From Meyerozyma guilliermondii (Eukaryota), in the NCBI GenBank assembly GCA_051546255.1, contig CP128816.1, forward strand, positions 1-64,000: DNA of 64,000 nucleotides, given 5' to 3'. Shown here piece by piece: positions 13,068-43,623 of this stretch. The position numbers and the translations under genes were made by a program. The notes under the pieces are model-generated. The model was not told the DNA's origin. It did not search any database and saw only the letters and a list, made by a program, of their open reading frames with translations. Position 1 is the first letter of the stretch. The number at the start of each line of letters is the position of its first letter.

Positions 13068-13128
13068 AGGCACATTGACGCTTGCAATATAAAAAGTTTT
13101 TCTGCTCTGTTTTCGTATTGTTTTTACA

Positions 13129-17511: not shown

Positions 17512-17739
17512 CGTTTTTGCCTTCCGATGCAAGGAATTGAGAAAATAGCCTCCTTCCATAAGCCACGATTAGCTAATAATAGAAGTGCAATTTGACACAT
17601 ATGACGCATATTACCTACATAGAGCTGCAGCATAAACTAAAGTGCACTTTATTTTCTCAGTTTCTAAACAATGTTTACGACCAACAATGATTGAACCTCT
17701 CCAATCTCAAAAACTCAAAAAAGCTACTTTTACGAGCGG

Positions 17740-18765: not shown

Positions 18766-18988
18766 TACAAAAAGGTAAATTCGTGCGTAATTAGTTAAAT
18801 GCGATAAGGGTTTTTTTTTTAATTCGCTAAATTTAGACACAGGATGTGTCAAATTTTGACATTTTTCACTTGGCGCATTTCGACCGTTCGCAGCCAGCGA
18901 ATTGACGAACATTCAAAAATACCTCTAGACTAAAAATAACCTCTTCTCCTAGGTACATGTAATTTTGCCAATGGCAGATCTCTATATT

Positions 18989-20428
18989 CTAGTATCTAAA
19001 CCCCTTTTCAGCTAGCACCGAGTTATCCACCAAAACTCCAGGAGCCACCTGTTCCAACTCACTATAAGTTGATGCCAATTTTCCAGTCTTGTCTCTATAA
19101 AGAACGTACGCCTCCTTTATGCCCTTGACCGATGCTCGAATTCTAACCTGGCGTTCATCCCAAACCAACGGTTTGAGTCCAACATTTGATTTGGCGGATA
19201 CCACCAAGTGGTTGAGATAGTTACAATATTCAACATCTTCAGGAAAGTTCATGTCGTGAAAGTTTTTCCCATTACCCTTGATCTTGATTCTATCGTCCTC
19301 CCACTTTTTCATCTCTTCAAATGATGGAAGAGGGACTTTTCCCGACCACACCTTTGCCAACCAGCACGCTTGTGATTCAGAAACTCGGGTTGGAAGTACA
19401 AATTTTGGCAATCCTACCACAGCCAAGTTTGGAAAATTGTAAAGTAGTACGTGCTGATAAGTTCCGTGTACTTTGTGACCATCTGTAAGAATGGGTGTTT
19501 TCGATTTGTTGAGTTTTTCAAAGAAGGGATACGACTTCAAATAACCTGTTGCAAAAATGACTTTTTCCACATTATCCATATACGATTGGTCAATAAAATA
19601 GACTCTTTTCTGGGATGCATCGAACCGGTCTATATCAGGCTTGTCCACAATCTTGTTGCTGGGACTCGCTGGCTGAAGGTTTTCTGATCTTCTGGATTTA
19701 TAGATTGTTCTTTTCAATCCCTCAGCTAGCTGATAGCAGATATCGCCAGCAGAGGCAGAGTTTCCCACCACCAATATATCTCCCTTGACATTTTCAAATT
19801 GTTTAGGAGACTTGAATGCCTTCACATGACTAATGGTTCCAGGGAATTGTTGGTTCCACTGTTCCATGCCGTTTCTATGTGGAATAAACGGAACGTCGTA
19901 ATTACCCACGGCAGCCACCACAGCGTCAAAGTACTCAACTGTGTCTTGATCTGACCGTTCACCACCGGCAGTTTCTAGATTCACAGGACGAGAAAGTACC
20001 TTCCATTGGTCATTTTCCCGTTCCACCAGAACCACCACAGTATTAAATTGGGTTATTGGACTGATATCCTTGGCGTAATTTTGCATATACTTCAACACAT
20101 CAGAACGATGGGGAAATAGCGGGAGAGTATCGGGAAATGGCAGAGATGCATAAGTCATCACATCGGTGGGAACATTAGTATCCAAAAGATCATAGGCAGC
20201 ACTGGGCCATACTATCTTATCATCCTTAATGATCGGAGTTATTTTATATGGAACCTCATTGGGAACCGGGAAATTTTCAGTTTCCGATTCATAGTTCCAA
20301 AGACCACCAAATTGGCTTCTTTTTTCAAAAACTTTAACCTTGTTGAAACACCGTTCAGCAACAAATGCCTTGGCAGCAGCGGCTCCACATGGCCCTCCTC
20401 CAACTATGGCAATTGATTTAATGCTCAT
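18989..20428 (-). CDS. FMO1: Flavin-containing monooxygenase (yeast FMO1-like, thiol-specific type)
   Basis: GGGPCG FAD motif, FMO fingerprint FPGTISHVKAF, GNSASAGD NADPH motif, ATGY. Confidence 0.85.
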   Translation of the reverse strand: MSIKSIAIVGGGPCGAAAAKAFVAERCFNKVKVFEKRSQFGGLWNYESETENFPVPNEVPYKITPIIKDDKIVWPSAAYDLLDTNVPTDVMTYASLPFPDTLPLFPHRSDVLKYMQNYAKDISPITQFNTVVVLVERENDQWKVLSRPVNLETAGGERSDQDTVEYFDAVVAAVGNYDVPFIPHRNGMEQWNQQFPGTISHVKAFKSPKQFENVKGDILVVGNSASAGDICYQLAEGLKRTIYKSRRSENLQPASPSNKIVDKPDIDRFDASQKRVYFIDQSYMDNVEKVIFATGYLKSYPFFEKLNKSKTPILTDGHKVHGTYQHVLLYNFPNLAVVGLPKFVLPTRVSESQACWLAKVWSGKVPLPSFEEMKKWEDDRIKIKGNGKNFHDMNFPEDVEYCNYLNHLVVSAKSNVGLKPLVWDERQVRIRASVKGIKEAYVLYRDKTGKLASTYSELEQVAPGVLVDNSVLAEKGFRY

Positions 20429-20486
20429 AAGTTGATAAGAAATTACGAGGAAAATTATATACTTTTAGTTAGAGTGGGCCGATAGC

Positions 20487-21052
20487 GCCACAGTTTGCAA
20501 TTTCTAATCGCCGATTTCGCTTATCGTGCGTCATATTGTTCCGTTTACGAATTATCCGACAGCACGTCAACGGTCAAACTGCGCCCGACCGCACAAACAA
20601 TTAATTCGCGAGTACTGAATTTTTCATTGCATTCTTCACTCTTTTTCGAGCCATAGTGATTCTCAATTTGCTCATTGTAATGATCTTCGTAAACGCCTGT
20701 TGAGCCACATGTGAAAAATTTGTCAATGCTTGGAAGTATACGCCTTCCGAACGTGCATATCGTTGTCGGCGTTTAGGTTCATGTCAAAATGTAAAGACTA
20801 GAACCTTTTGTTTCTTCAGAAATTTGAAATACTTTTCGAAATATCGGCAATCCAAAATTTAGTAGCCATCAGGAATGAAGTACATCTATAATTTGCACCA
20901 CTCAGTAAATCATTTAGGCCCTCACCGCTTTCATTTAGACCATCGTCGCTTTCGCTGCCGCAATTGAGTCACTGCACGTTATCATGCGGCTGCATTTGGG
21001 CTTTTCATTTCCTGCACTGTCATCATCAGATCTGCGAATTCTCAACTGTGGC
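20487..21052. promoter_or_regulatory. Met31/Met32-type sites in the divergent FMO/permease promoter
   Basis: GCCACAGTTT (reverse complement AAACTGTGGC) at 20487-20496 and AACTGTGGC at 21044-21052, each about 55-60 bp from one ATG. Confidence 0.6.
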
Positions 21053-21105
21053 TCTGAAGACTATTTAATTATGAATTTTTCATGAAATTCTGAAAATCAC
21101 CAAAT

Positions 21106-22659
21106 ATGGAAAAGAAAGAGGAAATAGTTTCTGTCCACCTGGGTACAGATGCAAAGGTGGTCGCCATTTCCAATGCCGACGAAACCTTGCACTTTATGAG
21201 AGAATACGATTCTCAAATTCCAGAAATCACCCCTGCTCAAGATAAGAAATTATTTCGGAAAGTACTCTTTCGGGTGCTTGGAATGACATTCCTTGTAAAT
21301 ATGATAATGTACATGGACAAGGCAACCTTATCGTACTCGTCCATTTTGGGCCTTTGGGAGAACACTGGAATTGATCAAAACAAGTATAACAACATCAACA
21401 CTTTGTTCTATGTGGGTTTTCTTTTAGGCCAGCTTCCATCGCCGTATATTCTTCAAAAGTTCCCGCTATCAAAAGTGCTCTTTGTTATCGTCGTACTTTG
21501 GTCAGTGCTCATCTTTTTGATTTGTGCAGCTTATAACTATCCTGGAATATTGATGCTTCGATTCTTTCTTGGTTTTGTTGAAGCTCTGGCAATTCCCTTG
21601 TTGACCACAACCAATGGTATGTTCATGACTAAGGATGAGCGTGCTACTATCCAGCCAATTTTCTATGCTTCATGTATGGCATCACCAATTCCAATTGGTT
21701 TCATTGCCTATGGAATTGCCTACCTTCATTCGAGCTTCCCAGGGTACAAGGTCCTCAATATAGTGATTGGTGGAGTCACCATCTTGCTCGCTGTTATAGT
21801 GTGGTTTTTCTACCCCGATAACCCAGCCAAAGCAAAGTTTCTTTCGGTTGAAGAGAAAGTGTGGGTTATCAGAAGAGTACAACGGACTCAGCTCAACACT
21901 ATAGAGCAAAAACACCTTTTTAAAAGAGCACATGCTATCGAAGCTTTCAAAGATCCAATTTCTTGGTTGATAACCGGGTTCTTCTTGCTTCAGCAGTTGG
22001 CGAACAATTTGACTTATCAGCAAACGCTTCTTTATGAAGAAATGGGCGGGGTTTCAAATCTAGGACTGACTCTTGTGACTGTAGCTGGTGCCGGATATGC
22101 GGTCTTATGGGCATTATTTGCCAGTGGAGTGATGTATTTCTTCCCCAATACCACCTGTTTCTGTGTCATATGGTCCACGTTGCCTGCTTGGGTTGGATCG
22201 ATTGCTGCCGTCAGCCTTAACTTAAAGAACTCAATTGGAATGTTGGCCGTGACTTGTATGGCTTCACTGTCTTTTGGAGTACCTTGGATTTGTGCCTTTG
22301 GCTTGGCAGCGTCAACGGCTGGAGCCTCTTACTCTAAGAGACTTACCAGAAATTCCATGGTTATGGGCGCTTATTCTGTGGCCAACATCATATCCCCACA
22401 ACTCTGGCAAAGCCGTGATGCTCCGAGATACGTTCCTGCCTGGATTGTTCAGATTGTTCTTAGTTTTACCATCGCTCCTGGCTTGATTGGAATAGTGTGG
22501 ATCATTTTGAGCCGGAGAAATAAAGCGAGACTTGCTGCATTGCACGAAGGCGATCGTACTGGATACGTCGAAGACGAGTCTGGGGCCAAAATAGAAGTCG
22601 ATGTTGCAGCATTGGACTTGACAGATTTGGAGGACAAGACCTTTATATACCCATTATGA
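21106..22659 (+). CDS. MFS allantoate-permease (DAL5/ACS) family, most like the cysteine transporter YCT1
   Basis: Motifs MDKATLSYSSILG, LRFFLGFVE, LQQLANNLTYQQ, PQLWQSRDAPRY, LDLTDLEDKTFIYPL. Confidence 0.8.
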   Translation: MEKKEEIVSVHLGTDAKVVAISNADETLHFMREYDSQIPEITPAQDKKLFRKVLFRVLGMTFLVNMIMYMDKATLSYSSILGLWENTGIDQNKYNNINTLFYVGFLLGQLPSPYILQKFPLSKVLFVIVVLWSVLIFLICAAYNYPGILMLRFFLGFVEALAIPLLTTTNGMFMTKDERATIQPIFYASCMASPIPIGFIAYGIAYLHSSFPGYKVLNIVIGGVTILLAVIVWFFYPDNPAKAKFLSVEEKVWVIRRVQRTQLNTIEQKHLFKRAHAIEAFKDPISWLITGFFLLQQLANNLTYQQTLLYEEMGGVSNLGLTLVTVAGAGYAVLWALFASGVMYFFPNTTCFCVIWSTLPAWVGSIAAVSLNLKNSIGMLAVTCMASLSFGVPWICAFGLAASTAGASYSKRLTRNSMVMGAYSVANIISPQLWQSRDAPRYVPAWIVQIVLSFTIAPGLIGIVWIILSRRNKARLAALHEGDRTGYVEDESGAKIEVDVAALDLTDLEDKTFIYPL

Positions 22660-24080
22660 GATACGGCAAGAACAATAGAACAATAAAGTAAAGAACAAGT
22701 GACAAGAACAAGAGCGCAGTGAGTTGCACCCAGGAACCTCAGAGTTGTAGCAAAGCTTGAATCGACGAGATTTGGACAAACTCTGTCTGACTAAGTTGAG
22801 TCGCGACGGCTAGACGAGTCGGCTAGTGAATATGTGGTGGGAGATATTAGGCGCCATTGCATAGTCCACTTCAGTCGAGTACAACTTTAAACAGCAATGA
22901 TGTTTCCAAAAAGGGACACAAAAAAACACGAAAGTGGTTAGGTAATTCTCTGATGCGAAAAGAAACAGGTACGATACTTTGAGATTGGCGGCGATCACAG
23001 AAAGACTTGGCACTTAAGCAATTCTTATGGGCCCATCGACTTTTACGAGCAAAAGTCTTTTTGAGCTAAATGCTGCATTTGATACAGCCAGAGTCAACAT
23101 AGACAAACCAGGAAGCAGTAGATAACGATTGGTTCGCAGCCGGCAGTTGAGTTGCAACTTTATGCCTTGAAGTAGTAATAAATATTTTTGGACAACTTAT
23201 TCTTCTTTAAGCGGACGGCATCCAAGACCCAAAAATGGGTGCAAAATGAATGAGAAAATAACCCAGCATGCATCAAATACGCACAACGTGCGGCTCTTCG
23301 AGTCTTTAAGATCAGTTCTTTCACATGGATGATATTTTTACCGACTTAATCCGGGGTGCATCAGGCGTTTTACAGCACTATTGTACTGTTATAATATTTT
23401 TCCCTATACGAAATTTTTTGCCAGCCTTAGCTTCGTTTTCAGCCAAGTCGTCGATTATTGTAGAAATCGAGGTCTCGTAAATTGCTAAACAATAAGGAAG
23501 TAATTCATGGACCAATTGACTCGTAATAACTAGCAAATCCAATCCATGTGAGCTCACACATTGGTGATTGTGGTTCAGAAAGATGGGTCGAAATAAAGCT
23601 AATTGAAGCTCGCTAAAAATTACTGGCATCAATTAAATATCTGCCCAGCGTCGCAAGTACATCCGCTCGTCGCGAAGGACTAAAGAAGACATGCGGTTAC
23701 ATCATGCATGAAAACGAGTCCAAGCGCCATGCATATTTTGTGGAAAGTTATCTCGACCATTTTAGTTGTTCCAAAACTTTGTAAGACTACCAAATACACA
23801 ACCTTCGTCCCTTCAAGTTCACAAGGTTTCTCGGTGTTGTAAAAAGACGCCAACTGCTAGAAACCTGAAGGTTTTAAACCCAGGATTTGCATTTGGGATG
23901 CGTCAGCTAGCAGTAAGTTTCTAGCATAACCTGCGATGCATACGACTTATTTCGATGATGCGTTTAACCGCCGAAACCGCAACCAGTCGCAACACGCTTT
24001 TGACGAACCAATTGGGTGATCGTTGCATCAACGTTTCTCTCTTATATAAGAGTATTCCCCACCGGATATTCATCCAAAAG

Positions 24081-27000
24081 ATGCGGATTTACTCGCTTAT
24101 CGCAGCAGCTTTGCTGGTTACCGGAGCATTGGGTATCACGATATCTCAAGATACAGTGACTCTGGGTCCACTTAATGCTTTCGTTGGTCTTACAAAGGTC
24201 GACGCTGGTGCATATTGGTCCATCGTCAACAATGCCGTTTCTAGTTTTTTGGGAAGTCTTCAAGTGGATGGAAAGCTCTTCATTAGCAGTAATACCAATT
24301 TGATAGGTTTGACTGTTGAATTGCTCGGTGTTCTCAATTCAATCACCAATAATGGAGATATTTCTCTTGACTCCTCAAAGTCGATTTTAGCTCCCAACTA
24401 TAACCTTATTGGCGCCCTGTTCACCAACAACGGAAATATGTGGCTCGCTGGTGATGGTAGTGTTGGTACACCGCAAATGTCAATCACTTCTCTTAGCTGG
24501 AATAATAAGGGACTTATCGTTTTCCAACAAAAAGTCTTATCAAGTGGTTTCGTTACCTTGGGTGCAGTCGGCACTAGTATCCAAAACGATGGTACCATCT
24601 GTTTGATAAACGAAGTTTATTCACAAACCACTGCTATTAAAGGAAGTGGTTGTTTTGACATTGGTGCCAAAAGTAATGTGTGGATTCAAAACTCTCTCTT
24701 GAGTGTTGACCCTAACCAAACGTTCTACTTGAGCAGTCCATCGTCTAGTATGAGAGTTGAAGCGCTTTCATTGAGTCAAACCTTCAAGGTTGCTGGGTTC
24801 GGAAATGGAAACGTTTTGGGGATCAGTCTTCCAATTTTCAGCTTCCTGTACAGTCCAGTAACAGGTATTTTGAAGATAAATACCTCGCTCCTCTTCTCGT
24901 TCAACTTTAATATCGGAACAGGTTATGACCCTACTAAGTTCGAGAGGTTCACTACCGACTTCGGAGGAATACTTACGACTGTGATCAACGGAGGTATCAG
25001 GTATAACGGACCTGTACCATCAGGAGCCACGCAGCCTACTGCTTGTAAGGCTTGTCTTCCATTGCCAACACCTCCACAACCTTCGTCATCGTCGAGTCTG
25101 AGTTCATCTAGTGCACCACCTTCGTCAAGTGCTTCTTCAAGTGCACCACCTTCATCTAGTGCACCATCTTCGTCAAGTGCACCAGCGTCGTCGAGCGCTC
25201 CATCTTCTTCTAGTGCTCCAGCTTCGTCTAGTGCACCATCCTCATCTAGTGCACCATCCTCATCTAGTGCACCATCTTCTTCTAGTGCACCATCCTCATC
25301 TAGCGCTCCAGCTTCGTCAAGTGCTCCTTCTTCGTCTAGCGCTCCGGCTTCTTCAAGTGCTTCGTCTAGTGCTCCAGCTTCATCAAGTGCTTCGTCTAGC
25401 GCCCCAGCTTCATCTTCAAGTGCTCCATCTTCATCTTCTGGATCATCTTCTTCAAGCGGACCATCCTCATCTTCTGGACCATCTTCGTCTAACGGACCAT
25501 CTTCTTCTGGTGGACCATCTTCGTCAAGTGGACCTTCGTCGTCAAGAGGACCTTCTTCATCTTCTGGACCTTCCTCCGCTGGACCTTCCTCATCTTCTGG
25601 CAGTGGTGGACCAACGGGACCTTCTTCATCTTCGGGCAATGGAGGCCCTACTGGACCTTCTTCATCTTCTGGAAATGGAGGCCCAACTGGACCAACTGGA
25701 CCTTCTTCATCTTCTGGAAATGGAGGCCCAACTGGACCAACTGGACCTTCTTCATCTTCTGGAAATGGAGGCCCAACTGGACCAACTGGACCTTCTTTAT
25801 CTTCTGGAAATGGGGGCCCAACTGGACCAACTGGACCTTCTTCATCTTCTGGAAATGCGGGCCCAACTGGACCTTCTTCTCTTTGTCCAGGATGCACAAA
25901 GTTCCCAACCACTTTTGTCTCAACAAAGACTGATGGCTCTATCGAAACTGACACTGGAAACTATGTCATCACAACGGACACGACTGGACATTTGACAACT
26001 TACACCACTGATATTGGACCTCTTTGTCCAGGATGCACAAAGTTCCCAACAACTTTCGTTAGCACCAAAACCGATGGCTCGATTGAAACTGACACCGGAA
26101 ACTATGTTATCACAACTGACACGACTGGTCACTTAACCACATACACCACTGATATTGGACCTCTTTGTCCAGGATGTACCAAGTTCCCAACAACTTTCGT
26201 TAGCACCAAAACCGACGGCTCAATTGAAACTGACACTGGAAACTATGTTATCACAACGGACACGACTGGTCACCTAACCACATACACCACTGATATCGGA
26301 CCTCTCTGCCCAGGATGCACAAAGTTCCCAACCACTTTTGTCTCAACAAAGACTGACGGCTCAATTGAAACTGACACCGGAAATTATGTTATTACGACCG
26401 ACAATGGTGGACATTTGACAACTTATACCACTGATATTGGACCTCTCTGTCCAGGATGCACAAAGTTCCCAACAACTTTCGTGAGTACCAAAACCGACGG
26501 CTCAATTGAAACTGACACTGGAAACTATGTTATCACGACGGACAAGACTGGTCATTTGACAACTTATACGACTGACATTGGACCTCTCTGTCCAGGTTGC
26601 ACAAAGTTCCCAACAACATTTATCTCAACGAAGACTGATGGTTCTGTTGAAACTGACACTGGAAACTATGTGATCACAACCGACAAAGGAGGACACTTGA
26701 CAACCTACACCACCGACATTGGACCTCTTTGTCCAAAGTGTACGAAATTCCCAACGACTTTCACCACCAAGACCGATGGTTCTGTCAAGACCAAGACTGG
26801 AAATGTTATCGTTACCACCGACTCAAAGGGCCACTTAACCACATACACCACTGATATTGGCCAACTTTGTCATGTTTGTACAGAGTACACCACTGTGTGC
26901 CCAGCTAGCAGTGGTACTGGAAAGATAACCAGCAAAGTGATTGTAACCACAAGCGGAGCTGTTACCTACACCACCACGGTTCCATGTGACACAGTTCAAG

Positions 27001-27326
27001 CTGTCAGCACCACAGTCGTCACTATCACCAGTTGCCACAAAGACAAGTGTTCTACTGGAGTTGTTACCACTGGAGTCGCTACATTTTCCAAGTCCAACAC
27101 CGTTTATACCACATTTGTGCCATTATCCAGTGTTGCTGTGGTGACAAATCCTCCTAAATCTGCTGCCCCAGCAGTTTCTGGTGCTCCTCCCGTCACGTTA
27201 TCTTCGTCAAAAACCACCCTCGCATCACTCTCGAGAACCATCTCAGTCGCTCAAGGAGCCGGTGAAATGAATTCTCCTTTCTCCTTTGCGGTTGCTGGTG
27301 CTTTATTCTTGGGAATGTTGTTCTAA
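24081..27326 (+). CDS. Hyr/Iff-family GPI-anchored cell-wall adhesin (paralog 1)
   Basis: Signal peptide (MRIYSLIAAALLVTGALG), Hyphal_reg_CWP-like domain (GAYWSIVNN, NDGTICL, VAGFGNGN), Ser-rich and GPT-rich stalk, seven Thr-rich CxxC repeats, hydrophobic GPI tail. Confidence 0.9.
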   Translation: MRIYSLIAAALLVTGALGITISQDTVTLGPLNAFVGLTKVDAGAYWSIVNNAVSSFLGSLQVDGKLFISSNTNLIGLTVELLGVLNSITNNGDISLDSSKSILAPNYNLIGALFTNNGNMWLAGDGSVGTPQMSITSLSWNNKGLIVFQQKVLSSGFVTLGAVGTSIQNDGTICLINEVYSQTTAIKGSGCFDIGAKSNVWIQNSLLSVDPNQTFYLSSPSSSMRVEALSLSQTFKVAGFGNGNVLGISLPIFSFLYSPVTGILKINTSLLFSFNFNIGTGYDPTKFERFTTDFGGILTTVINGGIRYNGPVPSGATQPTACKACLPLPTPPQPSSSSSLSSSSAPPSSSASSSAPPSSSAPSSSSAPASSSAPSSSSAPASSSAPSSSSAPSSSSAPSSSSAPSSSSAPASSSAPSSSSAPASSSASSSAPASSSASSSAPASSSSAPSSSSGSSSSSGPSSSSGPSSSNGPSSSGGPSSSSGPSSSRGPSSSSGPSSAGPSSSSGSGGPTGPSSSSGNGGPTGPSSSSGNGGPTGPTGPSSSSGNGGPTGPTGPSSSSGNGGPTGPTGPSLSSGNGGPTGPTGPSSSSGNAGPTGPSSLCPGCTKFPTTFVSTKTDGSIETDTGNYVITTDTTGHLTTYTTDIGPLCPGCTKFPTTFVSTKTDGSIETDTGNYVITTDTTGHLTTYTTDIGPLCPGCTKFPTTFVSTKTDGSIETDTGNYVITTDTTGHLTTYTTDIGPLCPGCTKFPTTFVSTKTDGSIETDTGNYVITTDNGGHLTTYTTDIGPLCPGCTKFPTTFVSTKTDGSIETDTGNYVITTDKTGHLTTYTTDIGPLCPGCTKFPTTFISTKTDGSVETDTGNYVITTDKGGHLTTYTTDIGPLCPKCTKFPTTFTTKTDGSVKTKTGNVIVTTDSKGHLTTYTTDIGQLCHVCTEYTTVCPASSGTGKITSKVIVTTSGAVTYTTTVPCDTVQAVSTTVVTITSCHKDKCSTGVVTTGVATFSKSNTVYTTFVPLSSVAVVTNPPKSAAPAVSGAPPVTLSSSKTTLASLSRTISVAQGAGEMNSPFSFAVAGALFLGMLF
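25083..25883 (+). repeat. Coding minisatellites: (APSSSS)n, (GPSSSS)n, then (GPTGPTGPSSSSGNG)n
   Basis: 18-bp and 45-bp near-perfect units are visible in the DNA. Confidence 0.85.
25884..26867 (+). repeat. Seven 141-bp (47-aa) Hyr1-type repeats (last unit 138 bp)
   Basis: CPGCTKFPTTF...TTDIGPL recurs every 141 bp from 25884 to 26730. Confidence 0.9.
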
Positions 27327-28178: not shown

Positions 28179-29714
28179 ATGTCAACTCAATTTTGGAAAC
28201 CAGGAAAACAGGTGAGCTACGCAGTAACATTTACTTGTGAGCTCGCATTCATTCTCTTCGGAGTCGAACAAGGTATTGTGGGAAACTTGATTGATGGTGA
28301 AAACTTCTTGAATCAGTTTGGACACCCTACGGGCAGCTACTTGGGAATTATAGTTTCAATCTATACGCTCGGATGCTTTTTTGGTTGCATTCTCACATAC
28401 TTTGTTGGTGACTATTTAGGGCGCCGGAAGACTATTGCAGCAGCTATGGTATTAGTGATTGTTGGAGTTGCTCTTCAAACTAGTGCTTTCACGGTAGCAC
28501 ACTTGATGATAGGAAGGTTTATTTGTGGTCTTGGTACCGGAATGGAAACTAGCTCGGTTCCCATGTATCAAGCTGAGCTTTCTCGTCCGGAACTTCGTGG
28601 TCGACTTGTGTGCTCCGAAGCATTGTTTGTTGGAGTTGGTTTAGTTTATGCTTATTGGTTCACTTATGGGATGTCGTTCACCTCAGGAGCCATTGTATGG
28701 CGGCTTCCAATTGCTACACAAATAATTTTTGCAGCGGTGGTTCTTGGTCTTACTTGCACCATTCCAGAATCGCCTCGGTACTTGTACTTCAAGGGTCGGA
28801 AAGACGAGGCCAAAAAGGTTCTCTGCTATGTATTTGGGAAGCCAGAAACCGATCCGGAGATTACTAGTTTGTACCAAGAAATCGAGGAAGCCATGATACT
28901 TGAGAGTACTGAAGGTGCGTATTCTTGGAAAAAACTTCTCGTTAAAGACACAGCCAAAACCCGCCATAGAGTGCTTTTGGCATACATGTCAATGTTTGCT
29001 CAACAGGTTGGAGGAGTTAACTTGATAAACTACTACATAACCACGGTTTTGATCAATAACGTTGGCATAGAACGTAACTTGGCTATGATTCTTGCAGGAT
29101 GTACAGTCATTTGCTTTACAGTTGGATCCTTGGTGCCCTCATTCTTCAGTGATTCGCTTGGAAGAAGATTACCATTAGTGTATGGATATATTGGATGCGG
29201 AGTATCCATGCTTTTCATAACTATTCTTTTGAGTTTCCAAGACAATAGTCGGTTGAAAGAGTCCACGGGATCGGCTGCGGTTGCCTTCTTCTTCCTTTTC
29301 CAGCTTATATTTGGTGCTTCCGGTAACTGTATTCCTTGGGTAATTGTGCCAGAGATACTTCCTTTGCATGCAAGAGCCAAGGGAACTGCTATTGGTATTT
29401 CTGCCAACTGGTTGTGGAATTTTTTTGTGGTGGAAATAACCCCAACTATCATCACCAACATCAAGTGGAGATCGTATCTCATATTCACGGTAACGAACTT
29501 TGCATTTGCATTGATGTTCTACTTTTTCTACCCCGAAACCAAAGGGCTCACCTTGGAGTCAATCGACAAACTCTTTTCCGAAAACAGCACGATGCTTATG
29601 GGATTCGTTGACACCAAACAATACCGCAATACTCCGCTAGAAGAATGGGACTCCGGGACTTCCAATGCGAAAAGCATTAGTTTGCAACATGTTGAATCAG
29701 TAGGATCTAGTTAG
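28179..29714 (+). CDS. Sugar porter (MFS), STL1-like sugar/polyol transporter
   Basis: Motifs GDYLGRR, GRFICGLG, PESPRYL, QQVGGVNLINYY, PEILPLHAR, PETKGLTLE. TATA-like run at ~28131. Confidence 0.9.
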   Translation: MSTQFWKPGKQVSYAVTFTCELAFILFGVEQGIVGNLIDGENFLNQFGHPTGSYLGIIVSIYTLGCFFGCILTYFVGDYLGRRKTIAAAMVLVIVGVALQTSAFTVAHLMIGRFICGLGTGMETSSVPMYQAELSRPELRGRLVCSEALFVGVGLVYAYWFTYGMSFTSGAIVWRLPIATQIIFAAVVLGLTCTIPESPRYLYFKGRKDEAKKVLCYVFGKPETDPEITSLYQEIEEAMILESTEGAYSWKKLLVKDTAKTRHRVLLAYMSMFAQQVGGVNLINYYITTVLINNVGIERNLAMILAGCTVICFTVGSLVPSFFSDSLGRRLPLVYGYIGCGVSMLFITILLSFQDNSRLKESTGSAAVAFFFLFQLIFGASGNCIPWVIVPEILPLHARAKGTAIGISANWLWNFFVVEITPTIITNIKWRSYLIFTVTNFAFALMFYFFYPETKGLTLESIDKLFSENSTMLMGFVDTKQYRNTPLEEWDSGTSNAKSISLQHVESVGSS

Positions 29715-29741
29715 ACAGAAATTTATGATGATGGATTTCTT

Positions 29742-31520
29742 TCATGTAGATGGAGAATTATCTCCGTTCCAATAAGCCTCCAAATCTCTCGCTCGAAACC
29801 CCAGCTGCCAGCCAGTGGTGGACTCGATTTTATGTAACAAGTTTAGCACAATTTCATGTTCCTCTTTACTACTAAGCAATTGACCCGCAATCCAAAGAGG
29901 CTGCAACGCATTGTTCCAGGAACCATGGTGCTCGTTGTGAAGACTAATAGCACATATTCTTTTAGCATGCCAAACTGGAGACCGTACATGCTCCAGAAAT
30001 ACGATTTTGTGAGCCCGGGGCTTGTTTTGGGTCAAAAGAATCACAGTCATATGGTAAAGTTGATTCGAAGAAATTGCCGGTCCATTCATATAGAGTATAC
30101 CGGGAAAAGGAGTTTGTTCGGTTTCCATTATAGGCATTAGTTGAAAAGGCCGATTCTTGTGCCATTCACTAACTTCGTCCCATACTTGTTTCCATTCAAT
30201 TGCATAGTCTTCTCTATCATTTGCTATCAAGTTGAGAACTCGAGCACATAAAAAAACCATGTAATTTGCATACATATCCTCCTGGTTTCCAAAAGAGGTG
30301 AATAGCGATTTCAGGTCGGATACACTGCAATCATTGGGTAACCATTTTTCCGAAGGTATCAAAGTGGGTTGCTCCCCTATAACTGCGGAAATGACATCCA
30401 TTCGAGCATAGCACCAGAAAAGTCCTCTCTGAAGAGGTTCGCAAAAACCATGGATATTGTGTGTCTTGAAAAGAGAAGCACATCCTTCAAGATGGTACCT
30501 CCAGGTTTTAGGAGATGAAGACATGAGCTCCAAGACACAGAGAATAACACAAGCGCAGATAATCGAGGTATCCAAGCAATCTTTAACGGTGGGAATTAGG
30601 TATCTGAGCGAATCACGATACAACGACAAGGTTATACTGGGAGAATACTTGTTGTCTCGTTGTTCCTTTTGTCTCGAAGCAATGGTTAAAATGGTGTAAA
30701 ACAATGCGTCGCTTCTAGTCGCAAGCAGAGGAATGACGGTCCCAAACTGCCTAGAGCCATCGAACATATCAAGCCATGGTGCAATCTCGTAAAGGTAAGT
30801 TTTGTATAAATCCAACTTTTCACTTTCTGTAATTTGTTCCTTAAAGGTTGTGTTCGTTGGTTGTTCTCCCGTCAATTGAGTGCTAGAGTCTTTCAACAAC
30901 TCAGGCATGGGAGATTGTAAGATATTAGTGAAGTCCACCGCCAGAACGTCGGCAGGAGAATTCATCGATGACGATGCAACATTTGTAAAGATATAATCTC
31001 TAAATGTTCTGTGTAAGCTTCTATAATGTAGAAACGGACTGAGATCGGTAGATATGTCCAGCAATTCATTCGGTGGTTCATCAGCTGAAAATTGATCGAC
31101 AAACGGCACCAAGGACTGGGGTTCATTTTTCATGATAGAGTTGCTGTGAGACATCGAACGAGATGGAGAAAGAAGTTCGTATCTCATACCATCTTGTTCT
31201 CCCGTATTCATAATGTTGTGAAGCTTGGGAGTAGTAGTCGACATCATAGGAGGGGTCCGTTGGGTCTCATTATTGTTGAGTGTTTCTTGAAGACGTTTTG
31301 AATAAACTTTAAGAGACTCTTCTTTTGTTGAGTTATTTGTTCCGTTCGATACCACCTTGTTCACAAACCTGCCACTCAAAGAGGGCCAAATGCAGTTGTT
31401 ATTTCGTTTAACACATCTCAGACATTTTGGCTTGAGTTCATCACATTTCTTATGAATCTCTCTACATTTAAGACACCCCGTTTTAACCCGATTTCGCGTA
31501 GATTTGGCTTCTTTCACCAT
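29742..31520 (-). CDS. Zn(II)2Cys6 transcription factor with a Fungal_trans_2-type C-terminal domain
   Basis: CxxC-x6-C-x6-CxxC-x6-C binuclear cluster at the N-terminus; APWLDMFD, WRYHLEG, FWCYARMD. Confidence 0.92.
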   Translation of the reverse strand: MVKEAKSTRNRVKTGCLKCREIHKKCDELKPKCLRCVKRNNNCIWPSLSGRFVNKVVSNGTNNSTKEESLKVYSKRLQETLNNNETQRTPPMMSTTTPKLHNIMNTGEQDGMRYELLSPSRSMSHSNSIMKNEPQSLVPFVDQFSADEPPNELLDISTDLSPFLHYRSLHRTFRDYIFTNVASSSMNSPADVLAVDFTNILQSPMPELLKDSSTQLTGEQPTNTTFKEQITESEKLDLYKTYLYEIAPWLDMFDGSRQFGTVIPLLATRSDALFYTILTIASRQKEQRDNKYSPSITLSLYRDSLRYLIPTVKDCLDTSIICACVILCVLELMSSSPKTWRYHLEGCASLFKTHNIHGFCEPLQRGLFWCYARMDVISAVIGEQPTLIPSEKWLPNDCSVSDLKSLFTSFGNQEDMYANYMVFLCARVLNLIANDREDYAIEWKQVWDEVSEWHKNRPFQLMPIMETEQTPFPGILYMNGPAISSNQLYHMTVILLTQNKPRAHKIVFLEHVRSPVWHAKRICAISLHNEHHGSWNNALQPLWIAGQLLSSKEEHEIVLNLLHKIESTTGWQLGFRARDLEAYWNGDNSPST

Positions 31521-31894
31521 TGGACATTAGACTAGTGGAGGGACTTGTAAATCAAGTATTAGATGGACTAAATGTTTAGCTGGGTATTAGTAGTAAAGCT
31601 AGATTCAAGGTTAGGTAGCTCAAGTAAAATACTGCACACAATCAATTGTCTAATAAAGTTGAAATAAAGAACAACAACTATAGACTCCCGATAAGTGGGG
31701 TCACACGCCCTGGTCACAGCCTTGGTTTCAGCCACGGGTTTCGGAATTTGAAAATTTCCACTTTTCCCCGAAAAATTTCACATTGGACAATGCATGTTAC
31801 CCCAGATTCTATACCCAAAGAGGAAATTTTTGCCGCAGTACGGGGATTATTTCGGGTGTTAAAATTTCATTCAAATTGTATTCAAATTGGTACA

Positions 31895-33946
31895 CTAAAC
31901 AGCTAGCAAGTCCTGAAACTCGAATTTGATGTCTGGGTCTTCGTACTCCTTGATGTAGCGCTCAATTCTGTCGGCAATTTTTGCGCTGTTGAACCCAAAG
32001 TAATCGTAGACTATAGAACCAGGTAACGACTTTCCAAAAGTAGTCATGTTGAAACCGGCTGTAGCATAGCGCTCCCATCCGTTTGGGGCATAGGCTTCGA
32101 TTACAACACAAGGAACTTTACCTCTTTTCAATACCGAACGTTTGTAGTTCAACGACTGCTGTTCAAATAACCTTTGAGAAGGAAACGAAACTACTCTCGA
32201 CTTGATACCTTTGTCACGCAAAACCTTTGAAGCTCCAACTGCAAACGTGAGTTCTGCTCCCACACCAATAATTGTGATCTGTGCATCTTCATCTTCTTGT
32301 AAAAGATAGGCACCTTTTGCAACCATTTGTCGATTGGTGGTAATTTGCTGTTCAAGGTTGTGTCTAGACAATGAGATGATTGTGGGAGTATCAGCCTTCA
32401 AAGCCGCTATCCAAGCACCAGCAGTCTCCTCAGAGTCGGCTGGCCGAATATAGTTGATTTGTGGTAAGGCTCTGTAGAAAGTAGCCAACGCAATTGGCTG
32501 GTGCGTAGGTCCATCTTCTCCGAGTCCTACTGAATCATGAGTTGCAACATGAATAACTTTTAGCTTGGACAAGGCTCCATATCTGACTGCGGGGGCAGCA
32601 TAGAGATAGAACATGAAAAACGACGAAGTAACGGGAATAAAAGTTCCTGGGTTGTAGGCGGCTATCCCATTGGCTATACCTGCCATTGAGTGTTCTCTGA
32701 TACCATAGTGTAAGTATCTTCCCAGGTAATCCCCATTAGTACCACAAGCTGTGTCAATGGCAGGATTTTGAAAGTCAACCTTCGATTTCCACGATAAGTT
32801 GACCGAGGGAGAAAGATCCGCTGTACCAAAAAAAAGACTCTTGATGTTCTCGGCGAGATTTTGAACGCACAAACCACTAGATTTACGTGAAGCAGTAGGA
32901 GTTGAAGGGAATTGAGTTGGAACCAAAGATTCCCAATTGCTTGGTAGCTTTCCATTTACTCTGTTCAAGAATTCTTTGGCCAATTCGGGATGTGCCGCTT
33001 GATACTTAGTCAAAAGTTCATTCCATTGCTTCTCTTCATTTTCTTCCTTCTTGAAAAAATCATACATGTATTGCGGAACCACGATTTTTTTATCGACTGG
33101 GAACCCATTAACAGAGTGGAGTCTGTCAACTTCATCCTGACCAAATGCAGCACCATGAGCAGCAGCCGTACCTTCTATATTTGACCCATATCCAATCTTG
33201 GTTTGGACATTGACAAGAGTGGGTTTATCAGACTTTCTGGAAGCTTCAAGAGCTGTTACAATTGCTGAAACGTCTTCAGATCCATCCATGATCTCAATCA
33301 CGTTCCAATTGCAAGCCCGAAACTTTTCATTGATATTTTCGGTGTTGGTGAGATCAACAGAACCATCGCAGGTAATCTGATTATTGTCATAAATTATCGT
33401 CAAATTGTCGAGACAAAGATGACCTGCCAACGAGATAGCTTCTAAGGAAATACCCTCTTGCAAACAAGCATCGCCAACAATACAAAACGTGTGGTTGGAA
33501 ACAATTGGATATTCAGGACGATTGTATGTCGCTTGTAAATTTTTCGCAGCAATTGCTAACCCCACCGAGTTTGCTACTCCTTGGCCCAAAGCACCAGTGG
33601 TCACCTCAATACCTGGATGTTCATTTTCTGGATGTCCAGGGCAATAAGAATCCAATTCAGCAGAATGATACGACTTTAATTGGTCCAATGTCATATGCTT
33701 GTAGCCAACAAGATGATGAAAAGCATACTGGAACAAGCATGTGTGACCATTGGAAAGCACAAACCTATCCCTATTGAAGAAATTGGGATTACTAGGAGAT
33801 ATCCGTAGAACATGCTTCCATAAAGCTACACCAATTGCAGCCATTCCCATGGCTCCACCAGGATGTCCTCCATTGTACTGTTGCACCAAATCAGCAATTA
33901 GGATACGAAACGTAACCAAAATCTTGTCGTAGTCGTCGGTGGTCAT
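31895..33946 (-). CDS. Transketolase, dihydroxyacetone-synthase (DHAS)-like subgroup
   Basis: GGHPGGAMG, RDRFVLSNGHTC, GDAC...N ThDP motif, HDSVGLGEDGPTHQP. The GGHPG, NGHTC and GDAC variants are DHAS-like. First ATG at 33946. No PTS1 (ends LLAV). Confidence 0.85.
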   Translation of the reverse strand: MTTDDYDKILVTFRILIADLVQQYNGGHPGGAMGMAAIGVALWKHVLRISPSNPNFFNRDRFVLSNGHTCLFQYAFHHLVGYKHMTLDQLKSYHSAELDSYCPGHPENEHPGIEVTTGALGQGVANSVGLAIAAKNLQATYNRPEYPIVSNHTFCIVGDACLQEGISLEAISLAGHLCLDNLTIIYDNNQITCDGSVDLTNTENINEKFRACNWNVIEIMDGSEDVSAIVTALEASRKSDKPTLVNVQTKIGYGSNIEGTAAAHGAAFGQDEVDRLHSVNGFPVDKKIVVPQYMYDFFKKEENEEKQWNELLTKYQAAHPELAKEFLNRVNGKLPSNWESLVPTQFPSTPTASRKSSGLCVQNLAENIKSLFFGTADLSPSVNLSWKSKVDFQNPAIDTACGTNGDYLGRYLHYGIREHSMAGIANGIAAYNPGTFIPVTSSFFMFYLYAAPAVRYGALSKLKVIHVATHDSVGLGEDGPTHQPIALATFYRALPQINYIRPADSEETAGAWIAALKADTPTIISLSRHNLEQQITTNRQMVAKGAYLLQEDEDAQITIIGVGAELTFAVGASKVLRDKGIKSRVVSFPSQRLFEQQSLNYKRSVLKRGKVPCVVIEAYAPNGWERYATAGFNMTTFGKSLPGSIVYDYFGFNSAKIADRIERYIKEYEDPDIKFEFQDLLAV

Positions 33947-34010
33947 TCTGAATGGGTTTTCCGGACTTTCCACCACTTTTTTATGTTTTTGCACCGATGC
34001 AGTTCCAAGT

Positions 34011-34149
34011 GTGGGGGTCGCGGCAAACCCATAGCGGGTCGCGGCTACCACTTCCCGATTGGGGATGTTGCAATCTGACGTGCGTCACCAAAGTGTAATA
34101 CCGAGCGCCAAATTAGCCGCAGACCCAGGTGTGGGGAGTCTGCGGCAAC
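34011..34149. promoter_or_regulatory. Short divergent promoter with four G(G/A)GTC(T)GCGGCWA motifs and Mig1-like GTGGGG boxes
   Basis: GGGTCGCGGCAA (34015), GGGTCGCGGCTA (34036), reverse-strand GGGTCTGCGGCTA (~34114-34126), GAGTCTGCGGCAA (34136). GTGGGG at 34011 and 34131. Confidence 0.6.
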
Positions 34150-34197
34150 TTTTCACTTCTGGATTTATGTATGGCGACTCTGCTCGTCTCCCATTCA

Positions 34198-35268
34198 ATG
34201 ACTTTTACAAACCCATCGTTACAGGTGACCAAAAACCACACTCTCGAATTGAATGAGACCGCAGTAAATCGTCCTCAACCCGGACAGGTACTTTTACATG
34301 TACGCGCCACAGGAATATGTGGATCTGATATCCATTTTTGGAAAACGGGTGCAATTGGTGAGCTTAAGGTCTTGGGAAATTGTACCTTGGGCCACGAAGC
34401 GGCAGGAGAGGTGATTGAAGTGGGAGAAAATGTCACCAATGTTGCAGCCGGTGATAGAGTAGCCATTGAGCCTGGAGTTCCATGCGGAAATTGCTTTCTT
34501 TGCTCCCAGGGAGACTATAATTTGTGTGAGCAGGTCCAGTTCATTGGCGTGTATCCTTATCATGGCTCAATGCAGAGATTTTTGGTTCATGATGCTCGGT
34601 ATGTGCACAAGCTTCCTGATAATATGTCTTATGAGAAAGGTGCATTGGTGGAACCTGCTTCTGTTGCTTACCATGCCATTGAAAGAGCTCAGCTTCGGCT
34701 TGGTGGAGGAGTGCTTGTTGCTGGAGCTGGCCCAATTGGACTTTTCACGTTATTATTGGCAAAGGCATCTGGTTGTACTCCATTATGCATTACTGATATT
34801 TCTCAAGACAGACTCGACTTTGCCAAGAAATTGGTTCCAGAGTTAAAGACGTACCGTATCAACCCCAAGTTGACCCCACAAGAAACTGGATTGGAAATTA
34901 AAAAGCAATTTGGTCCTACAGAATATCATGCTCCACATGTTTCTCTCGAATGTACTGGAGTGGAATCAAGTATCAATTGTTGTGCCTATGCTACCAGAAG
35001 ATCTGGTACACTTATGGTTGTGGGAGTAGGAAAGGACGAAATAAAGATTCCTTTCATGACTTTGTCGCTTGCTGAAGTGGATGTCAAATTTATCAATCGT
35101 TACCACCATAGTTGGGCTCCTGTTATCAAGTTGATAAGTGAAGGTATTATCAAGGTAGAGCCCTTGGTTACTCATCGGTTTCCATTGGAACAAGCCAAGG
35201 CCGCTCTTGAATGCTCACAAGATCCTACATCGGGTAGTATCAAGGTGATGATAGTGGATACAGAATGA
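34198..35268 (+). CDS. Zn-dependent polyol dehydrogenase (L-arabinitol 4-dehydrogenase / sorbitol DH family)
   Basis: GICGSDIH, GHEAAG, structural Zn CxxCxxC-x7-C, GAGPIG, ECTG. Start at 34198 or 34171. Confidence 0.9.
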   Translation: MTFTNPSLQVTKNHTLELNETAVNRPQPGQVLLHVRATGICGSDIHFWKTGAIGELKVLGNCTLGHEAAGEVIEVGENVTNVAAGDRVAIEPGVPCGNCFLCSQGDYNLCEQVQFIGVYPYHGSMQRFLVHDARYVHKLPDNMSYEKGALVEPASVAYHAIERAQLRLGGGVLVAGAGPIGLFTLLLAKASGCTPLCITDISQDRLDFAKKLVPELKTYRINPKLTPQETGLEIKKQFGPTEYHAPHVSLECTGVESSINCCAYATRRSGTLMVVGVGKDEIKIPFMTLSLAEVDVKFINRYHHSWAPVIKLISEGIIKVEPLVTHRFPLEQAKAALECSQDPTSGSIKVMIVDTE

Positions 35269-38308: not shown

Positions 38309-41698
<3,390 letters not shown>

Positions 41699-41952: not shown

Positions 41953-43623
41953 TTATGCCAAACTCTTGATCGGCTGGGACTCCACAGGCTCAAGTTCCAC
42001 TTCCTTATACTCCAACTGGTTCCATTCTTCTTCCCGCTGATTATAGTGCTTGTAACAAACCCAAAAAAGGCACCCAGCTACGAAGCACGATACTGCCAAG
42101 CCGGTGTACGACCACACAAACTTGGGGTTTTCAGATGTGGAAGATAAAGCTATTCCAAGGGCTGAACCTCCAGCGTTGGTTAGCAAGAACAACGACATGA
42201 TAAACGACTTCATACTAACAGGCGCCTTTGTATAAGCGTACTCCAAGCCTGTAATGGAGGCAAAAATCTCCGACAACGCAATCAAGACATAAGCGGGAAC
42301 TTGAAGGGCAATATGGATACGATTTGGAACACCTTCAAATCCCTTGCAAGTCAAAGGTTCGTCGTAACAAGGTCCGGCTTTGTAGATGTAATGTTGCAAT
42401 ACCCCAGCATATACCATTGCAGCGGTACCAAACATGAAGCCCAAAGTGATTTTTGTGATGGACTTTAAAGGAGTGAACTTTCTAACGAATGGATATACAA
42501 AATGCTCACAGATGGGAATAAAGACAATGATAGTAATCGAGTCGATAACCTGAAGAAAATCGTTGGGCAACCCATGGAGCTCCATTTGGCCTGCTTGGGA
42601 TACAAAGTTGTTGAGCATTTGTCCATAAACCACCCAGTAGATGGGGTAGTACAAGAAAACCTTACAAGCATACACGGCTCTTTTCACTTCTTCAACAAAA
42701 TGGTCAGTCCACGGAAACTCTTTTTCAGGATTTTTCGACGGTTTGGCAGCTTCAAATGTGAACCGACTCCTTAAAGCTATCCAAGTACATTGAAAAGACT
42801 TGGCAATAACCTTATTAGAAACTGGAACTATGGTATAAGAATTCCTACCAAGAATCAATGCTGCGATAGCAATGAAGAAGAAACAGAAAGGTAAAAGGAA
42901 AGCTGCCCAGAACCCCACACGGGCCTCTAATTCAGTGGTTGCAATAATAGACAAAGAACCAATATTAATCATGAGATAGAAAAACATGAACACATTTTGT
43001 ATGGTGATTGCTGGGTCCTGCACCACTCTTTCTCCAGACTTCAAAACTTTGATAACTGGCTGGGTTTTTGGAACCTGATCTGCAATCAAAGGTGACACAT
43101 TTGACGAGATTCCACCAGTTCCAATTCCAATGATGACAATTGCAACTATATACCCTCCCAAAGCTGTGTTGTAGCTGGTAATAGCGGGAATAGACGTGAT
43201 GAACAAAATGAGGATTCCAGCCATATAAATAAGACAGAAAACCACAATGGTCTTGTACTTGCCCCAAAAAGTATCAGCAACCCAGGCTCCAAAAATCGGA
43301 GTGACATAGCACCAAAATTGGAAAAAATATGACAACGCAGTGGCTCCTTGATTTTTTAAGTTTAAAGCTCCAGGAGGAGTTCCACTAGGACCATTTTGCA
43401 TGTAGTTTTGGAAAGGTGCACTCAAACCAAAGGACGAAAAAGTTCCTGCCAACTCCACCACACCCACAAGATAACAACTAATGGGGATTTTTGCGGCAAC
43501 ATGGCGTAAATTATTTAATTCGTCCAAAGTCGGAGTTCTGCCTTCGTCGTCTTCATATGATCTTTCTCCAGAAAAGGTACCAGAGTCGATGTTGATCACG
43601 TCCAAATTCTTTTCGTTGTTCAT
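41953..43623 (-). CDS. PTR/POT-family transporter, PTR2-like, with a non-canonical substrate site
   Basis: GLSAPFQNY, GAWVADTFWGKYKTI, FYLMINIGSL, SQAGQM, SEIFASITGLEYAYTKAP. The ExxERFxYY motif reads ELAGTFSSF. Confidence 0.9.
   Translation of the reverse strand: MNNEKNLDVINIDSGTFSGERSYEDDEGRTPTLDELNNLRHVAAKIPISCYLVGVVELAGTFSSFGLSAPFQNYMQNGPSGTPPGALNLKNQGATALSYFFQFWCYVTPIFGAWVADTFWGKYKTIVVFCLIYMAGILILFITSIPAITSYNTALGGYIVAIVIIGIGTGGISSNVSPLIADQVPKTQPVIKVLKSGERVVQDPAITIQNVFMFFYLMINIGSLSIIATTELEARVGFWAAFLLPFCFFFIAIAALILGRNSYTIVPVSNKVIAKSFQCTWIALRSRFTFEAAKPSKNPEKEFPWTDHFVEEVKRAVYACKVFLYYPIYWVVYGQMLNNFVSQAGQMELHGLPNDFLQVIDSITIIVFIPICEHFVYPFVRKFTPLKSITKITLGFMFGTAAMVYAGVLQHYIYKAGPCYDEPLTCKGFEGVPNRIHIALQVPAYVLIALSEIFASITGLEYAYTKAPVSMKSFIMSLFLLTNAGGSALGIALSSTSENPKFVWSYTGLAVSCFVAGCLFWVCYKHYNQREEEWNQLEYKEVELEPVESQPIKSLA

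Follow-up and report, generated by a model that had tools for sequence, protein, structure and literature searches.

We describe here a compact cluster of four genes from the yeast Meyerozyma guilliermondii, located at positions 28,179 to 35,268 of a 64,000-nucleotide stretch (hereafter the window; GenBank assembly GCA_051546255.1, contig CP128816.1, positions 1 to 64,000 of the forward strand). The cluster encodes a sugar porter, a Zn2Cys6 transcription factor, a transketolase of the dihydroxyacetone synthase (DAS) family and a zinc-dependent polyol dehydrogenase of the LadC class. Genes of the same families are found together from yeasts to filamentous ascomycetes, with the two enzymes mostly in the same divergent orientation. 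We read the cluster as one yeast's version of an ancient and so far uncharacterised module by which ascomycetes break down a polyol, possibly a ketose, and in which the transketolase would take a free ketose as donor and glyceraldehyde-3-phosphate (GAP) as acceptor. A probability of roughly 50% is given to this reading.

Composition of the cluster

The cluster is made up of the following features.

28179-29714, + strand: sugar porter of the major facilitator superfamily (MFS), Sugar_tr family, 511 aa (Pfam Sugar_tr/MFS_1)
29742-31520, - strand: Zn2Cys6 transcription factor, 592 aa (Pfam Zn_clus and Fungal_trans_2)
31521-31894, no strand: intergenic region with the regulator promoter and the transketolase 3' end; one GCGGCAA box at 31830-31836 (- strand)
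31895-33946, - strand: DAS-family (TktC-type) transketolase, 683 aa (Pfam Transketolase_N/Transket_pyr/Transketolase_C_1)
33947-34170, no strand: bidirectional promoter of 224 bp serving the transketolase and the dehydrogenase; four GCGGCWA boxes
34171-35268, + strand: LadC-class NAD-type zinc polyol dehydrogenase of the medium-chain dehydrogenase/reductase (MDR) family, 365 aa (Pfam ADH_N/ADH_zinc_N)

According to the listing of open reading frames (ORFs), all four genes are intronless and free of internal stops. If CTG is read as Ser, the dehydrogenase changes at 1 residue and the regulator at 7, and all ORF borders stay in place. A first-pass annotation of this DNA had placed the same four genes at these positions, and their Pfam domains match the assignments. 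Of the gaps it gave (about 27, 370 and 250 bp), the first two agree with the spacers of 27 bp (porter/regulator) and 374 bp (regulator/transketolase), and the third is corrected to 224 bp (transketolase/dehydrogenase). From this last spacer the transketolase (- strand) and the dehydrogenase (+ strand) are transcribed divergently, as it had also stated. Its remark that no kinase, isomerase or alcohol oxidase lies nearby agrees with a Pfam scan (E <= 1e-5) of 24 ORFs of at least 150 aa across the 64-kb window (4 of them without any Pfam match, so that a novel enzyme may be among them), in which no sugar kinase, dihydroxyacetone kinase (DAK), isomerase or GMC alcohol oxidase was matched. A tblastn search of the window with a DAK gene gave no match either.

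The transketolase belongs to the DAS family

Among the best 120 rows of the protein collection, the 119 non-self rows match the transketolase at 958-1121 bits and 60-70% identity, and the named ones are called dihydroxyacetone synthase, formaldehyde transketolase or simply transketolase. The yeasts represented are Yamadazyma, Priceomyces, Cyberlindnera, Wickerhamomyces, Kuraishia, Ogataea, Candida boidinii and Lipomyces, and many rows come from Pezizomycotina, including AN8551.2 of Aspergillus nidulans. The matches to TKL1 of S. cerevisiae and to the transketolase of S. stipitis reach 586 and 550 bits. Because the housekeeping copy of a CTG-clade yeast should score far above 550 bits against S. 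stipitis, the protein is not the TKL1 orthologue. The phylogeny that the first-pass annotation had proposed as a check on its DAS-like assignment gives the same answer: in a FastTree tree of 84 rows, the window transketolase lies inside a 79-row DAS-family clade, and the 5 classical transketolases lie outside it with a branch support of 100. Housekeeping TKL1 identity is thus ruled out by both the scores and the tree placement, and by these comparisons the enzyme is a DAS-family paralogue. The database copy of the same protein (100% identity, 1578 bits) has 718 aa, with an N-terminus 35 residues longer and two differing residues (GPNL versus GSNI). Since no in-frame ATG lies upstream, the longer N-terminus probably stems from a prokaryote-style gene finder that called an alternative start.

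All three transketolase domains were found by Pfam, placing the protein in the thiamine diphosphate (ThDP)-dependent transketolase superfamily. In an alignment to 1gpu, the residues His30, His69, His103, His263, Arg359, Ser386, Glu418, His469, Asp477, His481 and Arg528 are all matched. Arg359, Ser386, His469 and Arg528 of yeast TKL1, which we take to bind the substrate phosphate (the remaining matched residues being presumably catalytic), correspond to R354, S381, H470 and R528 of the window enzyme, and these four are invariant in an alignment of 26 DAS-family sequences. Because all four are kept, at least one reaction partner, xylulose-5-phosphate (Xu5P) or GAP, is probably phosphorylated. 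The earlier proposal that phosphorylation is skipped altogether is not supported by these residues, nor by the DAK-family kinase found in two related loci, described below.

The C-terminus of the transketolase reads -LAV, so that the first-pass annotation was right to assign it no peroxisomal targeting signal type 1 (PTS1); the relatives compared end in -DLN or similar. A cytosolic location is predicted.

The dehydrogenase belongs to the LadC class

The best solved relatives of the dehydrogenase are the L-arabinitol 4-dehydrogenase (LAD) of Neurospora crassa (335 bits) and, after it, human sorbitol dehydrogenase (SDH; 288 bits). Its best 120 matches all reach at least 435 bits, and their tree mirrors the species tree (36 Saccharomycotina versus 84 Pezizomycotina rows), which is the pattern expected of one orthologous group. 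Kept in all 120 are the zinc ligands C50/H75/E76/E161 and the NAD-type Asp209, which marks the use of NAD rather than NADP; the NAD-type site suggests a fit to the oxidation of a polyol to a ketose. The group also has a signature of its own, Leu65 (119 of 120) and Asn309 (120 of 120). These residues fall at the Met/Tyr positions of N. crassa LAD and at F59/F297 of human SDH (1pl6 alignment). In LadA of Aspergillus niger, M70 and Y318 distinguish the enzyme from SDH and xylitol dehydrogenase (XDH), which carry Phe and Phe (PMC2731777). Both a LadA-type and an SDH/XDH-type identity were rejected for the window enzyme, the Met/Tyr and the Phe/Phe pocket pairs alike being replaced by Leu65/Asn309. 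The earlier label LAD-like is therefore sharpened to LadC class, NAD-type, and the objection raised with it, that the cluster might simply be the known L-arabinose pathway, meets a dehydrogenase whose LadA specificity residues are replaced and which is not the standard enzyme of that pathway.

The A. nidulans gene ladC is AN8552 (PMC4021826, in excerpt), and the DAS-type transketolase AN8551.2 is its neighbour by number. In Aspergillus granulosus, the transketolase and dehydrogenase genes lie on one 30.9-kb contig. By synteny, judged from the AN8551/AN8552 numbering and the A. granulosus contig rather than from the AN8552 sequence, the window dehydrogenase would be the LadC counterpart. Excerpts of a 2009 paper describe LadC as a branch of its own, present in most tested fungi, with a function "likely" different from that of LadA (PMC2731777), and no LadC substrate is reported in the excerpted LadC literature (PMC2731777, PMC8601170).

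The dehydrogenase ends in -DTE and carries no PTS1-like tripeptide. In the methylotroph Ogataea polymorpha, three distinct LadC-class dehydrogenases (rows P0132, P0141 and P0146; 61-66% identity to the window enzyme) form one clade, which looks like a lineage-specific expansion.

Conservation of the cluster in fungi

In named records, synteny was inferred from locus tags and contig sizes rather than from DNA, and comparison was confined to the best 120 rows per protein. In Priceomyces carsonii the porter (…447001), dehydrogenase (…448001) and transketolase (…449001) carry consecutive locus tags, as do the transketolase and dehydrogenase of Penicillium chrysogenum (N7489_005896 and N7489_005897). 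A contig of the same size as that of one of the 120 transketolase rows was found for 13 of the 120 dehydrogenase rows (7 of these contigs below 100 kb) and for 7 porter rows (relatives of 64-74% identity; 4 of these contigs below 100 kb), an equal-size match on a large contig being weak evidence of linkage.

The porter has an 88%-identical relative in Meyerozyma sp.; the best non-self matches of the transketolase and dehydrogenase reach only 70% and 73%, with no Meyerozyma among the best 120. Some close relatives may have the enzyme pair and others not.

A metagenome scan with the single transketolase protein gave 51 pattern matches, none of which was confirmed. A second scan, with the 26-sequence DAS-family alignment as query, gave 80 fungal loci, or 70 after near-identical ones were collapsed; 39 of the 70 extend 1.5 kb or more beyond the transketolase on its upstream side and are regarded as informative. 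When all ORFs of at least 90 aa in the 80 loci were clustered, the recurrent neighbours were a LadC-like MDR (20 loci), a dehydrogenase of the short-chain dehydrogenase/reductase (SDR) family (16), the regulator family (16) and Sugar_tr (10). In the informative loci, a polyol-type dehydrogenase is present in 25 of 39 (15 LadC-like MDR and 11 SDR, 1 locus having both), the regulator family in 14 and a Sugar_tr gene in 8. In 13 non-redundant loci of the MDR kind and 6 of the SDR kind, the dehydrogenase is the next gene upstream and is read from the other strand, which is the divergent layout of the window.

It can be seen that two unrelated dehydrogenase folds, MDR and SDR, adjoin the same transketolase family. 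The choice of partner is structured by clade on the transketolase tree, with 3 changes against a shuffled mean of 8.5 and none of 500 shuffles as low. The yeasts, including the window gene, and the AN8551/P. chrysogenum group are MDR-linked clades, and another clade of Pezizomycotina is SDR-linked; the regulator family accompanies both kinds. The best solved matches of the SDR partners are fungal NADP-dependent mannitol (2-)dehydrogenase and carbonyl reductase (115-134 bits).

A DAK-family kinase with Dak1 and Dak2 domains stands beside the transketolase in metagenome locus L008 (2959-4810, - strand), and another lies inside the cluster of locus L071 (about 3300-5350, + strand) together with a porter, the regulator family and an SDR; these are the only 2 of the 70 non-redundant loci with such a gene. 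As a separate observation, in the unrelated loci L028 (7271-8989, + strand) and L062 (2-1308, + strand), the gene immediately upstream of the DAS-type transketolase has a 6-phosphofructo-2-kinase domain. Beyond the dehydrogenase, regulator, porter and DAK (twice), no further family recurs across unrelated loci that would give a clue to the substrate.

To judge from this recurrence across Ascomycota, the clustering of the genes is more than chance and the pairing is ancient, which supports the earlier view that the genes form one cluster and pathway. The conserved unit of transketolase, oxidoreductase and Zn2Cys6 factor, plus porter, is the architecture of a fungal catabolic cluster.

Porter, regulator and promoters

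The porter matches PF00083 (Sugar_tr) over profile positions 3-452 of 452 with 336 bits and is thereby a member of the sugar porter family. Its relatives are auto-annotated as STL1-like, myo-inositol-transporter-like or hexose-carrier-like, and an ESM Atlas search returned only generic MFS and STL1 names. It is presumed to import the pathway substrate. By the comparisons made here, its place in the cluster is conserved in yeasts only.

The transcription factor has the two domains of its family, Zn_clus at residues 14-45, with Cys16, 19, 26, 33, 36 and 43 all present, and Fungal_trans_2 at 238-566. Its relatives (34-42% identity over the C-terminal approximately 340 residues, 180-320 bits) adjoin DAS-type transketolases, and it is presumed to be the pathway-specific regulator. 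The porter and regulator genes are convergent, with stop codons 27 bp apart (29715-29741), and their 3' ends and terminators must overlap.

Four GCGGCWA boxes occur in the 224-bp promoter, at 34020, 34041, 34114 on the - strand, and 34142, two of them preceded by GTGGGG (Mig1/CreA-like SYGGRG). Thus 4 of the 11 matches in the window fall in a 130-bp stretch inside the shared promoter, where about 0.013 would be expected (shuffle mean 6.24 per 64 kb). A fifth box of this type is present in the regulator's own promoter. Zn2Cys6 factors usually bind CGG-containing repeats, and GTGGGG fits the Mig1/CreA consensus. The GCGGCWA boxes are candidate sites that the Zn2Cys6 factor would probably bind, and the GTGGGG boxes hint at repression by glucose. 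Of the spacers between transketolase and dehydrogenase in distant fungi, 13 of 19 contain the CreA-like k-mer CCCCGCA, against 2.9 expected; this enrichment may reflect kinship of the loci.

Comparison with known systems

The methylotroph enzymes DAS1 and DAS2 (EC 2.2.1.3) belong to the same transketolase subfamily as the window enzyme, which has kept the ThDP, catalytic and phosphate-site residues. In methylotrophs DAS works with DAK in the xylulose-monophosphate pathway, and a DAK-type kinase is likewise a neighbour in the two related loci mentioned above. Targeting and context are different. Methylotroph DAS requires a PTS1 (PMC6052537, in excerpt), whereas the window enzyme has none; moreover, no GMC oxidoreductase or Dak domain was found in the 64-kb window, and the transketolase is partnered instead with a polyol dehydrogenase, a sugar porter and a Zn2Cys6 factor. 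DAS-type genes occur in many non-methylotrophs, and their role there is called an open question in the excerpted text of Ravin 2013 (PMC3866509). In models of A. niger, TktC is assigned the formaldehyde reaction by annotation only (PMC6231085, PMC9781776).

LadA, LadB and LadC of the L-arabinose and oxidoreductive D-galactose pathways share the MDR subfamily, zinc ligands and NAD-type site with the window dehydrogenase; LadA differs in having Met/Tyr at the specificity positions occupied here by Leu65/Asn309. A bacterial parallel is the apulose-4-phosphate transketolase of D-apiose catabolism, which, as is proposed for the window enzyme, is dedicated to one pathway in a sugar catabolic cluster and cleaves an unusual ketose; it differs in being bacterial and of the split type and in acting on a phosphorylated ketose.

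The erythritol cluster of Yarrowia lipolytica (EUF1, EYD1, EYK1, EYI1 and EYI2) is polyol-induced and, like the window cluster, compact, with a Zn2Cys6 activator and a polyol dehydrogenase (excerpts of PMC5992420 and PMC11394100). Additionally, Euf1 and erythritol induce a second transketolase-like gene of Yarrowia, YALI0D02277g (PMC10935855, in excerpt). The Yarrowia cluster differs in possessing a DAK-family erythrulose kinase and two isomerases, whereas no Dak, TPI-like or RpiB-like gene is found in the window, and Euf1 has about 960 aa against 592 aa for the window regulator. Orthology to Euf1 was set aside: the Yarrowia upstream activating sequence box A, GGAAAGCCGCY (PMC5557077), bears only a weak GCCGC/GCGGC resemblance to the boxes described here, which was not used as evidence.

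Surroundings of the cluster

The cluster is bracketed by two large Hyphal_reg_CWP (Hyr/Iff-type) adhesin-like genes with Flocculin_t3 repeats, at 23955-27326 (+ strand) and 38309-41698 (+ strand), a pairing which suggests a variable, possibly subtelomere-like region. Taken with the 88%-identical porter of Meyerozyma sp., the adhesin genes indicate a CTG-clade yeast. Transporter genes are unusually frequent at 6791-22659 and 41953-43623 (ATG22-like, two MFS, an OPT oligopeptide transporter and a PTR2/POT peptide transporter), and an FMO-like monooxygenase gene lies within this stretch at 18989-20428. The four ORFs without a Pfam match, of 254-399 aa, are at 16450-17559 (- strand), 17740-18912 (- strand), 44773-45972 (+ strand) and 51130-51894 (+ strand).

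Proposed pathway and alternative explanations

To the observed gene identities, family placements, active-site conservation and evolutionary linkage, the following scheme adds a direction of flux, a free-ketose donor, an inducer and a role of the motifs as binding sites, all of which we infer. The sugar porter would import a compound that the LadC-class NAD+-dependent zinc dehydrogenase would oxidise to a free 2-ketose. The cytosolic DAS-family transketolase would then link this unphosphorylated carbon to the pentose-phosphate pathway by ketol transfer, the free ketose being shortened to an aldehyde while glyceraldehyde-3-phosphate enters and xylulose-5-phosphate leaves. The Zn2Cys6 factor would turn the genes on, probably through the GCGGCWA boxes, with glucose repression through GTGGGG. 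The order from polyol to ketose to transketolase had been suggested in the first-pass annotation; the NAD-type LadC dehydrogenase, the DAS-type transketolase and their linkage make it plausible and partly supported, its phosphorylation-free part being unsupported.

Tetritols via L-erythrulose, or larger polyols, are the candidate substrates. Tetritols are favoured because, among transketolase substrates, L-erythrulose comes next after dihydroxyacetone in the homologous series. They are also made attractive by the induction of a second transketolase-like gene by erythritol and Euf1 in Yarrowia (PMC10935855) and, by analogy, by the presence in two related clusters of DAK-type kinases, the family of the Yarrowia erythrulose kinase. 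Weighing against tetritols, the smaller pocket residues (Leu/Asn in place of Phe/Phe or Met/Tyr) could accommodate larger polyols. A more specific conjecture, which we regard as doubtful, is that of an undescribed route, poor in kinases and centred on LadC and the DAS-type transketolase, by which tetritols or another small polyol are used. L-erythrulose would be formed by oxidation of erythritol or threitol, and the transketolase would either split it (L-erythrulose + GAP to Xu5P + glycolaldehyde) or recapture the formaldehyde or glycolaldehyde that it yields after phosphorylation and aldolase cleavage; methylotroph DAS would then be a later, peroxisome-targeted offshoot of this older polyol pathway.

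Several observations weigh against the proposed module. The intact phosphate pocket of the transketolase gives no indication by itself of a free ketose donor, and because it is intact two reaction schemes fit, the reverse, DAS-like direction with a free aldehyde as acceptor fitting equally well. In 10 of the 39 informative loci no partner gene is present, two of these being ordinary transketolases at about 40% identity, and the porters of Pezizomycotina clusters are only 22-35% identical to the window porter. Across the whole window the GCGGCWA count is not significant (11 against 6.2 +/- 2.5, with 5 of 100 shuffles reaching 11), and the three window promoters have no more k-mers in common than shuffled sequence does (12 eight-mers, where shuffles gave 9.0 on average and at most 19). 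Nor is the box conserved between the transketolase and dehydrogenase genes of distant fungi. All trees, finally, were built with FastTree only.

It is possible, although not probable, that the transketolase runs as DAS does, with Xu5P as the donor that captures free formaldehyde or glycolaldehyde to give dihydroxyacetone or L-erythrulose and GAP. The aldehyde would be made within the pathway, for example by an aldolase acting on a ketose-1-phosphate derived from an imported polyol, and the dehydrogenase would act upstream, from polyol to ketose, or on the ketose product. This direction agrees with the intact Xu5P/GAP phosphate site, with the presence at L008 and L071 of a DAK-family kinase, which would naturally use up dihydroxyacetone or erythrulose, and with the resemblance of the SDR partners to NADP-dependent ketose reductases (115-134 bits). 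The family is, moreover, the source of methylotroph DAS or includes it, according to the row names and to excerpts of Ravin 2013 (PMC3866509). However, a DAK gene was seen in only the 2 non-redundant loci and nowhere in the 64-kb window, and the Pfam scan of the window showed no formaldehyde-generating alcohol or amine oxidase nearby. The NAD-type dehydrogenase and the importer suggest catabolism that starts from a polyol, a feature common to this direction and to the proposed module.

It is unlikely that the cluster serves ordinary oxidoreductive catabolism of pentoses or galactose, with the dehydrogenase as an L-arabinitol or galactitol dehydrogenase and the transketolase as an extra pentose-phosphate isoenzyme raising flux. 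L-xylulose, the product of LAD, does not have the 3S,4R configuration needed by transketolase donors, which counts against such a role. The same is true of the Leu/Asn pair that replaces both M70/Y318 of LadA and the Phe/Phe of SDH/XDH in 119 and 120 of the best 120 relatives, of the separate branch and likely different function reported for LadC (PMC2731777, in excerpt), and of the lowered expression of A. nidulans ladC on xylose (0.15-0.32; PMC4021826, in excerpt). On the other side, the best solved relative of the dehydrogenase is an L-arabinitol 4-dehydrogenase, and relatives occur in L-arabinose-using yeasts such as Candida arabinofermentans and Ambrosiozyma monospora. DAS1, in addition, has classical transketolase activity and influences the fermentation of xylose by Ogataea (PMC6052537), and a second transketolase-like protein of Yarrowia is more abundant during xylose assimilation (PMC8407480), both according to excerpts. 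That the genes are chance neighbours in a variable region rich in transporter and adhesin genes, with no functional link, is highly improbable, since the same families stand together in Saccharomycotina and Pezizomycotina alike, for the most part with the divergent arrangement retained. The flanking Hyr/Iff-type adhesin genes and the many transporter genes around the cluster would suit such an accident, as would the patchy distribution suggested by the porter, which reaches 88% identity in Meyerozyma sp. against at most 70% and 73% for the enzymes among the listed relatives.

Implications

The family memberships of these genes were already known. New, to judge from the literature search, are the linkage of LadC and DAS/TktC as neighbours and a proposed transketolase-based exit from a polyol or sugar cluster, which would be unusual. 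A full-text literature search, with supplementary tables outside its scope, found no account of the cluster and nothing that connects a DAS/TktC-type transketolase with LadC or with any LAD-like dehydrogenase; for AN8551 no literature was found, and for AN8552 an expression table only.

LadC and the DAS/TktC enzymes of non-methylotrophs are two widespread families that stand in annotations and metabolic models without a demonstrated role. Their ancient divergent pairing, accompanied by a dedicated regulator and among yeasts by a porter, allows two orphan annotations to be combined in a single pathway hypothesis. If the proposed module is real, polyols would have a new way into the pentose-phosphate pathway, and fungal metabolic models in which TktC carries a methanol-assimilation reaction would need correction. 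The module would also offer a compact four-gene cassette with an inducible bidirectional promoter for yeast engineering, and it could explain the origin of the key enzyme of yeast methylotrophy.

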